Shown one piece after another: positions 3,484 through 51,314 of a stretch of 64,000 nucleotides of DNA. Origin of the DNA: Escherichia coli (GTDB taxonomy: Bacteria > Pseudomonadota > Gammaproteobacteria > Enterobacterales > Enterobacteriaceae); assembly GCF_044647545.1 (NCBI RefSeq), contig NZ_CP172818.1, one strand, 5' to 3'. Each line of letters begins with the position of its first letter. The first letter of the stretch is position 1. Made by a program: the position numbers and the translations under genes. The notes under the pieces were generated by a model. That model saw only the letters and a list, made by a program, of their open reading frames with translations. It ran no database searches and had not been told where the DNA came from.

Positions 3484-4662
3484 TCATGAAGTGACCACTT
3501 GTAGCTTAAATAATTGCACTGTGCTGATAAGCGCAGCAATAAACAACGCCGCCGCGCCGCAGAGAGTGGCGCTGGCAAGCGCCGATGTTCCATTGCCGAG
3601 CATACTGGTCAGCGCCGGGCCGAGGATTTGCCCAATGCCGTAAATGAGCGTCACAAAGCCTAAAAGATTGAGATTTCCCGGTACGCTCAGTTGGCGGGCG
3701 ATAGTCATCACCAGAGATGTCGTGCCCATAAAGGTACCGCCAAAACCAAGACTGCTGATGATAAGCAAGAGAGGCGAGTCGCTGGCGAGAGTAAGCAGCA
3801 CACAGATAGCCTGCACCAGCAAATTCGCCGTCAGGCAGGGCAAAGCCCCCCAACGTTTTGCTGCCCATAGCCAGCCAAAGCAACCAGGCACAATTGATAA
3901 GCCGACTAACGTCCAGAGATGGGCGGTTAACAATGGTGAGCCTGCATCTTTCGCCATGAGCGGCAGGTAAGTCGCGACGATGATATAACCAAATCCCGCC
4001 AGGCCGTACAGAATAGCCAGTAACCACCAGCTCATTATCTGTTGCTCCGTTTTTGCCAATGGCATTGGTGTGATGGCGTGTTTTTTCGAGGGCATTAAAA
4101 GCGTAAGTGCAATCAGCATCATGCCAGAAAGCGCCCCGGCGCCTTGCCATAACGTTTGCGAGGAGAGGTCAAAATGCAGGCCTGCCAGAACATATTCATT
4201 GCCCAGTGCGATGCCAATGCCAACGCCAGAAAACAAAGCTGCCAGCACAAAAGGATGGCGCGTGTGCTGCATAATCAGCGTCGAACCAAAAATCAGCATA
4301 CCGGCGCTGGCGACACCCGCCAGGACGCGAATCAATAACACCAGAATAAATGGCGGCAACCATGCCATTGCGAGGATCAACAACCCGCTCGCCAGGGCAG
4401 AAGCCAACAGAAATGGGCGCAGGCGCGATGGCTGGTGAAATGCGCCAAAAGAAAATAGCAGACTGCCAGCCAGATACCCCGCATAGTTGCCGCTGGCAAT
4501 CCACGAGAGCTGGCTAAATGAAAACGATCCTTCCGCCATCATGACGGGCAACATAGGCGTATAAAGGAAGCGGCCTAAACCCATACCTAAGGTCAGAACC
4601 AGCATCCCGAAAAGCGCGGTGCTGAAAGAAAAGCGTTCTACGGGATGCGTGGACGAAGGCAT
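3484..4662 (-). CDS. yjiJ: MFS-family transporter YjiJ
   Basis: 392-aa ORF with about 12 hydrophobic segments. Confidence 0.85.
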
Positions 4663-10478: not shown

Positions 10479-11335
<857 letters not shown>

Positions 11336-11430
11336 AGGGGTTCTTCACGTTTGTGAAGGTGCCGAAACTGGATATGGACTATTGAGTGAAATGTCAGGCC
11401 GCAGATGCGGCGCCATCATCCGGCCCAAAA

Positions 11431-37020: not shown

Positions 37021-37901
37021 TTTGCCGTTTTATCGACACCCACTGCCATTTTGATTTCCCGCCGTTTAGTGGCGATGAAGAGGCCAGCCTGCAACGCGCG
37101 GCACAAGCGGGCGTAGGCAAGATCATTGTTCCGGCCACCGAGGCGGCAAATTTTGCCCGCGTGCAGGCGTTAGCGGAAAATTATCAACCGCTGTATGCCG
37201 CTTTAGGGTTGCATCCGGGGATGTTGGAAAAACATAGCGATGTGTCTCTTGATCAGTTACAGCAGGCGTTGGGAAGACGTCCGACGAAGGTGGTGGCGGT
37301 GGGGGAGATCGGCCTGGATCTCTTTGGTGACGATCCGCAATTTGAGAGGCAGCAGTGGTTGCTTGATGAACAACTGAAACTGGCGAAACGCTACGATCTG
37401 CCGGTGATCCTTCATTCACGGCGCACGCACGACAAACTGGCGATGCATCTTAAACGCCAAAATTTGCCACGCACTGGTGTGGTTCATGGTTTTTCTGGCA
37501 GCCTGCAACAGGCCGAACGGTTTGTGCAGCTGGGCTACAAAATTGGCGTAGGCGGTACTATCACCTATCCACGCGCCAGTAAAACCCGCGATGTCATCGC
37601 AAAGCTGCCGCTGGCATCGATGTTGCTGGAGACCGACGCACCAGATATGCCGCTCAATGGTTTTCAGGGGCAGCCTAATCGCCCTGAACAGGCCGCCCGT
37701 GTGTTTGCCGTGCTGTGCGAGTTACGCCCGGAACCCGCGGATGAGATTGCCGAAGTGTTGCTTAATAACACGTATGCGGTGTTTAACGTTCGTGGAGCCG
37801 AGCCGAAGCGCACGCACGCAGCACAACGAGCCCCTAGTCTGCCCTTCGTAAGCCGGATAAGGCGTTCACACCGCATCCGGCAGTCGACGCACAATGCCTG
37901 A
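37017..37901 (+). CDS. yjjV: TatD-family metal-dependent hydrolase YjjV; 3' end uncertain because the ORF runs into a REP array
   Basis: IDTHCHFDF TatD motif at the N-terminus; C-terminal ~30 codons are encoded by REP sequence. Confidence 0.75.
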   Translation: MICRFIDTHCHFDFPPFSGDEEASLQRAAQAGVGKIIVPATEAANFARVQALAENYQPLYAALGLHPGMLEKHSDVSLDQLQQALGRRPTKVVAVGEIGLDLFGDDPQFERQQWLLDEQLKLAKRYDLPVILHSRRTHDKLAMHLKRQNLPRTGVVHGFSGSLQQAERFVQLGYKIGVGGTITYPRASKTRDVIAKLPLASMLLETDAPDMPLNGFQGQPNRPEQAARVFAVLCELRPEPADEIAEVLLNNTYAVFNVRGAEPKRTHAAQRAPSLPFVSRIRRSHRIRQSTHNA

Positions 37902-38050
37902 TGCGACGCTGACGCGTCTTATCATGCCTACAAGTCTGTGCCGAACCGTAGGCCGGATAAGGCGTTCACGCCGCATCCGGCAGTTGGCGCACAATGCCTG
38001 ATGCGACGCTGACGCGTCTTATCATGCCTACAGGTCTGTGCCGAACCGTA
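37845..38050. repeat. tandem REP/BIME array (two ~105-bp units)
   Basis: Two near-identical units gccggataaggcgttcac.ccgcatccggcagt...gatgcgacgctgacgcgtcttatcatgcctaca.gtctgtgccgaaccgtagg. Confidence 0.85.
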
Positions 38051-38055
38051 GGCTG

Positions 38056-44272: not shown

Positions 44273-44992
44273 ATGGCTACTCCACACATTAATGCAGAAA
44301 TGGGCGATTTCGCTGACGTAGTTTTGATGCCAGGCGACCCGCTGCGTGCGAAGTATATTGCTGAAACTTTCCTTGAAGATGCTCGTGAAGTGAACAACGT
44401 TCGCGGTATGCTGGGCTTCACCGGTACTTACAAAGGCCGCAAAATTTCTGTAATGGGCCACGGTATGGGTATCCCGTCCTGCTCCATCTACACTAAAGAA
44501 CTGATCACCGATTTCGGCGTGAAGAAAATCATTCGCGTTGGTTCCTGTGGTGCAGTTCTGCCGCACGTAAAACTGCGTGACGTAGTGATTGGTATGGGTG
44601 CCTGCACCGATTCCAAAGTTAACCGCATCCGTTTTAAAGACCATGACTTTGCAGCTATCGCTGACTTCGACATGGTGCGTAACGCAGTAGATGCAGCTAA
44701 AGCACTGGGCATTGATGCGCGCGTTGGTAACCTGTTCTCCGCTGACCTGTTCTACTCTCCGGACGGCGAAATGTTCGACGTGATGGAAAAATACGGCATT
44801 CTCGGTGTGGAAATGGAAGCTGCTGGTATCTACGGCGTCGCTGCAGAATTCGGCGCGAAAGCCCTGACCATCTGCACCGTGTCTGACCACATCCGCACTC
44901 ACGAGCAGACCACTGCCGCTGAGCGTCAGACCACCTTCAACGACATGATCAAAATCGCACTGGAATCCGTTCTGCTGGGCGATAAAGAGTAA
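44273..44992 (+). CDS. deoD: purine nucleoside phosphorylase
   Basis: 239 aa from [33 protein letters not shown]. Confidence 0.95.
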
Positions 44993-45025
44993 TTGTGTTT
45001 CGCTGAAAGGCGATTGTCGTGTGAA

Positions 45026-45054
45026 GCCGGAGCGGGAGACCGCTCCGGCTTTTT
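45026..45054 (+). terminator. intrinsic terminator of the deo operon
   Basis: gccggagcgg-gaga-ccgctccggc followed by ttttt. Confidence 0.8.
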
Positions 45055-45187
45055 AGTATTTATTCATCAATAGCAACTGATTTATAGATTCACTATTATT
45101 TTTCATATGGATAGAAAATTAAATCCATTCGAGTATCTTCACGAATCTTCAGCCCCAAAAATAACTAACTCATTTATCAACAGCGAG

Positions 45188-46204
45188 TTACCGCACCGCC
45201 CCTGCCATCCACGTCGACAACTCCCTTAGCTCTTTTTCCTGTTCAGGGAAGTCAACCAACAGCGCTTCACACTCTTGTTGCAGCATGTCAGCGCGGTACA
45301 GGCAGCCTTGCAGTCGTCCGGCGAGAGCTTCCAGAGGTGCGGGGTTGAGGCTATCGGTAAACACCTGGGCGCGGGTGATATGGCCTTTTTCGACGTCGAA
45401 ATGCAGTTCTACGCCGCCCCAGGTAAAGCGTTCATCCAGCAGATGCGAGAACGCTGGAGCCTGTCCGAAATTCCATTCCCAGCTACTCTGGCGGGCAAAG
45501 GTTTCGGCGAAGTTCGGCAAGTCCGGCGTTTTGTCCGGGGAGATAATTTCCGCTTCTACACGCTCGCCATAATGGGCGAAAAAGGCCTCGGTTATGGCTT
45601 CGCAAACCTGCTCGTGGGTAATTCCCGGCAGCAATTCGGTCAGATTGGTCACGCGGGAACGTACCGACGTAATGCCTTTCGCCGCCAGTTTCTTTTTATC
45701 CGGGTTGAGATAGTTTGCCAGGCGGCTAAGGTCGGCATTGAGTAGCAAGGTGCCGTGATGGAAGCCACGATCTTTGGTTTCGCGATAGGCCGAGCCTGAG
45801 ACTTTACGGTCGCCTTCGGCGGTTTTCACCACCAAATCGTTACGTCCGGACGCTTCGGCGCTGACACCGAGCGCGTTCAGTGCATTGAGCACAATCGAGG
45901 TGGAGATCGTTTTATCGTATTCCGGCTTGCCAGCCATGAAGGTAAAACAGGTATTGCCGAGATCGTGGAACACCGCGCCGCCACCGCTACTGCGCCGTGC
46001 CAGGCGAACGTTATCTTCTTCCATCCGCCGGGTATTACACTCTTTCCACGGGTTCTGCGCGCGACCAATCACTACCGTGTCGGCATTGCGCCAGAGAAAC
46101 AAAACGCGCTGCGTGGCGGGCATCTGGCGAAAAATACACTCCTCCACCGCCAGGTTAAACCACGGATCGTAAGAGTCAGAGATGAGCAGGCGTAATGTGG
46201 ACAT
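45188..46204 (-). CDS. lplA: lipoate-protein ligase A
   Basis: 338-aa [25 protein letters not shown] recognised as LplA. Confidence 0.9.
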
Positions 46205-50639: not shown

Positions 50640-51010
<371 letters not shown>

Positions 51011-51039
51011 GACGAAACTGCTCAAAGGTGAGGTATAAA

Positions 51040-51267
51040 ATGAGTTTTTTTGATGAGTTGAAAACCTCTCTGGAAGAGGCTGTCGAGATTAAACAAGGTT
51101 TAAAAGAACCTGCACGGGTGACCCGCTACGAAATTGCGGATGTTAAAGCTATTCGTGAGCAACTCAACTTTCGCAAATGTGATCAAAGCCGCAACTGGCA
51201 ATCAAAGCTAAAACTGATGCGAAGAAATCCTACGGGATATTGGCCAAAAGTACTTCCACAATTATAG
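51040..51267 (+). CDS. orphan HTH (XRE/HigA-like) antitoxin-like ORF, C-terminal half degenerate; possible pseudogene or non-native sequence
   Basis: N-terminus MSFFDELKTSLEEAVEIKQGLKEPARVTRYEIADVKAIREQL resembles XRE-type antitoxins; the downstream HTH is not intact; RBS aaaggtgagg and TTGACG upstream. Confidence 0.3.
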   Translation: MSFFDELKTSLEEAVEIKQGLKEPARVTRYEIADVKAIREQLNFRKCDQSRNWQSKLKLMRRNPTGYWPKVLPQL

Positions 51268-51314
51268 AAAATCCTGCCTTTTTTCGGAACTTCCCCATTA
51301 ATATTTAACTATTA

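Follow-up and report, generated by a model that had tools for sequence, protein, structure and literature searches.

A probably artefactual empty site between deoD and lplA in an Escherichia coli sequence record

In E. coli K-12, yjjJ (also named hipH) is a monocistronic gene for a HipA-family Ser/Thr kinase with an N-terminal helix-turn-helix (HTH) domain (Gerdes et al. 2021, PMC8262856; Gratani et al. 2022, PMC9948734). The first-pass annotation of the DNA analysed here had placed a gene of ~1.3 kb between deoD and lplA in K-12, which is correct. In a K-12-derived strain, yjjJ spans 1332 bp on the + strand between these two genes, and its stop codon abuts that of lplA. The K-12-type YjjJ protein matches the HipA_C family (PF07804) with an E value of 8e-21.

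A second, unrelated gene occupies the same site in other E. coli strains. This gene, here called HTH87, encodes a protein of 87 amino acids (WP_000566246.1 / WP_000566155.1), which is annotated either as 'sigma factor-like' or as 'helix-turn-helix domain-containing protein'. Its match to the Pfam family Sigma70_r4 scores 25.3 bits, just over the cut-off of 24.1, and weaker matches are found to HTH_3 and HTH_25. In the majority allele, the cassette consists of a 264-bp open reading frame on the minus strand, 31 bp downstream of lplA. The idea that HTH87 is a truncated N-terminus of yjjJ was rejected, as the gene lies on the opposite strand and its product has no similarity to YjjJ.

To place these two cassettes in the population, 5426 complete E. 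coli genomes were searched. DNA of yjjJ was present in 1348 genomes and HTH87 at the deoD-lplA site in 4074. The two counts add up to 5422, and the locus query matched 5424 genomes. In essence, the site thus has two alleles, and both cassettes could be lacking in no more than about four of the 5426 genomes. This also means that most E. coli strains have a site without yjjJ, as can be seen from the annotation of thousands of RefSeq genomes. In both alleles, the cassette starts after a conserved block, GTATCTATTCACGAATCTATTCATT, and ends at the lplA stop codon. Which cassette is present is not tied to broad lineage: Nissle and O157:H7 strains carry HTH87, and ST131 strains carry yjjJ. Insertion sequences are found at the site as well, with IS200C next to yjjJ in CFT073 and an HTH87 gene split by IS1 in CEA106S. 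The 3' ends of lplA also differ between the alleles, and the deoD-lplA interval presents itself as a small hot spot. Taken together, the differing cassettes and lplA 3' ends suggest that recombination has occurred repeatedly at this site.

Just upstream of the cassette lie direct ATCTATTCA repeats, which are kept in both the yjjJ and the HTH87 alleles (positions 2234-2258 of locus L001 and 4234-4258 of locus L003). K-12 has further copies of the repeat at positions 4160-4170 and 4224-4232 of L003. The ATCTATTCA repeat block is a candidate operator, to which the HTH domain of HipH, HTH87 or both could bind.

The DNA under study is a stretch of 64,000 nucleotides of an E. coli genome, referred to as the window. 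Here, the stop codons of deoD and lplA are separated by only 195 bp (44993-45187). The first-pass annotation had described this gap, including the deo terminator within it, and both its coordinates and its description proved correct. The features of the gap and its surroundings, together with three other stretches discussed below, are listed in the table.

Features of the deoD-lplA interval and of three further stretches of the window that depart from the related genome DFL.5
Feature	Position in window	Strand	Basis or remark
deoD, purine-nucleoside phosphorylase, last gene of deoCABD	44273..44992	+	NCBIfam TIGR00107, 423 bits
Predicted intrinsic deo terminator, G+C-rich hairpin with T tail	45023..45057	+	Terminator scan
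Intact HTH87-type spacer	45058..45138		Same sequence as in 2013C-4282 and DFL.5; unlike the yjjJ-type spacer of K-12
Damaged copy of the repeat block GTATCTATTCACGAATCTATTCATT, which reads GAGTATCTTCACGAATCTTCA in the window	45131..45151		Comparison with natural loci
32-bp filler TCAGCCCCAAAAATAACTAACTCATTTATCAA	45149..45180		Replaces 290 bp of the relatives, including the HTH87 gene
CAGCGAG, last natural bases ahead of the lplA stop	45181..45187		Identity with the relatives resumes here
lplA, lipoate-protein ligase A	45188..46204	-	NCBIfam TIGR00545, 367 bits
Stretch of 945 bp filling the whole yjiA-mdtM space	10480-11424		65% G overall; 116-nt G run at 10998-11113; unalignable
Net 38-bp insert, GAGCCGAGCCGAAGCGCACGCACGCAGCACAACGAGCCC in place of 1 base	37796-37834		At the yjjV stop codon, adjoining REP repeats
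Stretch in the nadR-ettA islet	50640-51300 (departure from about 50690)		Low complexity: A runs (longest 30), a 15-nt T run, GGGAAA repeats

The deoD gene ends with a TAA stop codon at 44990-44992, and its product does not differ from the DeoD protein of strain 2013C-4282 (100% identity). The terminator scan placed a hairpin of 13 pairs, nine of them G-C, with a 4-nt loop at 45023-45052, 30 nt past the deoD stop and followed by a T tail, which has the form of an intrinsic (Rho-independent) terminator. This terminator is conserved in the yjjJ-type and the HTH-type alleles alike. The convergent lplA gene has its end 135 bp past the hairpin and encodes a protein identical to WP_000105852.1 of 2013C-4282 and DFL.5. 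Of the 195 bp between the two genes, only the deo terminator is predicted to be functional. The open reading frames of at least 20 codons that touch the gap measure just 20, 26 and 40 amino acids. The longest of them runs across the filler, and an exact look-up found it on no record. An open reading frame of about 440 amino acids with a HipA_C domain, as expected for the HipA-family kinase, is accordingly not found between deoD and lplA. That yjjJ is missing from the window also held in similarity searches: tBLASTn and blastn with the K-12-type YjjJ against all 64 kb returned a best E value of 2.9. Searches with the HTH87 protein and DNA over the same 64 kb gave no match either, so that the HTH87 gene is missing as well.

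The window shares with the K-12 yjjJ/hipH locus the site itself, bounded by the deo terminator and the stop codon of lplA, and the block of ATCTATTCA units just upstream of the cassette. It differs from this locus in having no yjjJ sequence at all and in flanks that belong to the other allele type: the segment 44993-45138 and the sequence from 45181 onward are identical to the HTH87-carrying 2013C-4282 and DFL.5, and are unlike K-12. Flanks, spacer and lplA allele are all of the HTH87 type, and the nearest relatives all carry the cassette, whereas the window has neither the gene nor its start region nor its stop, and has 32 bp in their place. The natural HTH87-type interval between deoD and lplA measures 455 bp, compared with 195 bp in the window.

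The relationship to DFL.5 (NZ_CP104843.1) is particularly close. To the left of the site, two mismatches were counted in ~44 kb. To the right, there is none for 5.4 kb, followed by about five small differences out to 64 kb. We read the cassettes of 54 contigs chosen for an identical LplA or YjjI protein. HTH87 was present in 27 of the 27 contigs read with the identical LplA (an allele listed in 2894 blocks) and likewise in all 27 read with the identical YjjI. By the sequence of its flanks and the company of its relatives, the source strain is a member of the HTH87 majority of E. coli, which makes its lack of yjjJ typical of the lineage and unremarkable. A 24-kb megablast (query 33000-57000) ranked the best identities at ~95.6%, compared with 98-100% by direct BLAST. 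The former figure may be distorted by a junk stretch within the query and by the limits of the pieces. A divergent Escherichia lineage as source of the window was considered and rejected, given direct BLAST identities of 97.7-99.1% to 2013C-4282 and of ~100% to DFL.5.

At the deoD-lplA site, the window departs from its relatives at the junction. In the alignment to the relatives, the 32 bp at 45149-45180 take the place of 290 bp, a segment that comprises the whole HTH87 gene with its start and stop and the region upstream of it. In addition, two bases of the conserved repeat, AT, have been lost at 45138/45139, and the alignment can be read as showing a second such loss at 45148/45149. The conserved 25-mer of this block was found undamaged in both alleles, in 15 of 15 natural loci spanning the site, and is lost only in the window. 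A general k-mer-specific error was considered as the cause of the AT loss. Within the window, the 8-mer of the repeat block is confined to this site, and the shorter motif CTATTC is intact everywhere else. The filler contains one G and 14 A in 32 bases, a composition reached by five of the 62,021 other 32-mers of the window. It is rich in A and C and poor in G, as is the junk sequence at ~50.7 kb.

The filler has no counterpart in the collections searched. The junction of the window in one piece occurs in none of the 5426 complete E. coli genomes, and nothing resembling the filler was found there. Exact scans with strings that cover most of the filler gave no hit in the species-representative genomes, which stand for 100,044 species with one genome each, or among 241 million metagenome records, and an exact scan for the left junction returned no hit in the 100,044 species-representative genomes. 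In the window itself, allowing up to 6 mismatches, the filler matches only itself. A circulating empty-site allele was thus found neither in E. coli nor in species-representative genomes nor in metagenome contigs. Scars left by FRT or loxP sites were also considered as the source of the filler, as was an end of IS1. By eye, the filler bears no likeness to any of them, and the collection searches gave no match.

The alignment of the whole window to DFL.5 revealed only four structural departures, of which the deoD-lplA junction (45139-45180) is one. All four lie at or adjoin accessory or repeated DNA. In the yjiA-mdtM space, DFL.5 has 1824 bp with BrnT/BrnA, an IS1 and a gene fragment, where the window has its G-rich stretch. 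The 38-bp insert at the yjjV stop extends the yjjV frame into the neighbouring REP repeats, and is present in none of the 5426 complete E. coli genomes. Between yjjV and yjjW, at 37847-38053, lie two tandem REP/BIME-like units of ~100 bp with BLAST self-matches of 95-96%. In the nadR-ettA islet, the relatives encode a RelE/ParE toxin and a NadS antitoxin. A nadS-like open reading frame at 51028-51267 of the window is only 63% identical, and the best match of the stretch as a whole in the 5426 genomes is 80%. The stretches in the yjiA-mdtM space and the nadR-ettA islet are not natural E. coli sequence.

The first-pass annotation had read the missing yjjJ as a presence/absence polymorphism of a toxin-like kinase or as a sign of a non-K-12 lineage. 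Part of this stands: 1348 of the 5426 genomes contain yjjJ DNA, and the flanks of the window are indeed not those of K-12. The suggestion that the strain or its lineage has lost a HipA-like kinase gene, which draws on the fact that K-12-type strains, CFT073 and ST131 carry yjjJ between deoD and lplA and that the window does not, is very improbable in our estimate. The spacer behind the terminator and the 3' end of lplA are the versions of the HTH87 allele and not those of K-12, the window holds no remnant of yjjJ, the near-identical relatives all have HTH87 instead, and doing without yjjJ is the majority state (75%). As the flanks are of the HTH87 type and the nearest relatives carry HTH87, the lineage did not lose yjjJ. 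The real oddity of the site is the missing HTH gene. Hardly any credence can be given to the idea that an old empty allele was recombined in from another Escherichia lineage or species. Such an import would be favoured by the mosaic, recombined nature of the locus, in which Nissle and CFT073 have different cassettes and the lplA 3' ends differ. Yet the flanks on either side show no difference from the recipient lineage as far as the junction, so that a donor would need the same flanks, and the filler and left junction are absent from the 100,044 species genomes and the 5426 E. coli genomes, with the filler absent from the metagenomes too. An imported empty allele is thereby already largely refuted.

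What was observed directly is how frequent the two cassettes are in the population, which allele the flanks belong to, that the junction has no counterpart, and that other junk stretches exist. From this we infer a technical cause and consider it likely that the empty deoD-lplA site is an artefact of the sequence record. The replacement of 290 bp by 32 bp, together with the loss of 2 bp from the repeat, would then reflect local corruption of the record and not biology. Such corruption could have arisen from a poor-quality bridge or gap fill at an assembly break, or from some other non-biological infill, and similar corruption would have struck three more accessory or repeat-associated spots of the window. 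We favour this reading because the yjiA-mdtM and nadR-ettA stretches are unnatural, because all four departures fall on accessory or repeat DNA, and because the sequence between them is essentially identical to a real genome. As would be expected of low-quality bridges, gap fills or infills, near-perfect identity to a genome is broken at a few accessory or repeat sites by sequence that has no counterpart, and at two of these sites the sequence is homopolymer-rich junk. The deoD-lplA stretch differs in being short and not homopolymeric. This contrast with the two large junk stretches speaks against an artefact, as does the extent of the shortening: the deoD-lplA site has shrunk to ~11% of its natural length, while the large stretches seem to remain nearer to theirs, with 741 compared with 785 bp in the nadR-ettA islet and 945 compared with ~1050 bp in the yjiA-mdtM space, the latter natural length being an estimate of 1824 bp less an IS1. 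The process at the deoD-lplA site may thus differ from that at the large junk stretches.

The main competitor of a corrupted record is a genuine private mutation, in which a complex deletion with a 32-bp filler removed the HTH87 cassette, for instance through insertion of an IS element and its subsequent imprecise deletion. The sequence is continuous across the site, the flanking genes are intact, and the locus is naturally unstable, as the disruption of HTH87 by IS1 in CEA106S and the IS200C beside yjjJ in CFT073 illustrate; these natural disruptions also count against an artefact. Set against this are the rarity of genomes without either cassette (none with the junction of the window), a filler that matches no IS or other sequence in the collections searched, and the number of events that would have to coincide, namely the loss of 2 bp from one repeat unit or from both, a deletion and the gain of a filler, all in a background that shows no point mutation for kilobases. 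The three further departures without counterpart, two of them clearly non-biological, weigh in the same direction. Because the filler is not homopolymeric and the site is shortened, a private complex deletion keeps some plausibility, and we regard it as a possible if rather unlikely origin of the junction.

For the reading of this window, the finding serves as a warning. At least four of its stretches, at ~10.5-11.4, 37.8, 45.15 and 50.7-51.3 kb, have no counterpart in the genomes searched, and any 'missing gene', 'odd repeat' or 'novel ORF' reported from these four should be regarded as suspect. The junction between deoD and lplA itself carries little biological weight, being an ordinary absence of yjjJ with a probable artefact on top, and the 'empty' state of the site is probably not real. 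Under a more far-reaching view, deoD-lplA would be a hot spot of cassette exchange for two unrelated and nearly mutually exclusive DNA-binding genes, the kinase toxin gene hipH/yjjJ and HTH87, which lie on opposite strands behind a common ATCTATTCA block that could act as a shared operator, and the window would represent a genuine third, empty state. We consider this improbable as a whole. If it were true, neither cassette would be needed. As a by-product, the analysis describes a two-cassette polymorphism at the deoD-lplA site of E. coli, with hipH in 25% and HTH87 in 75% of genomes.
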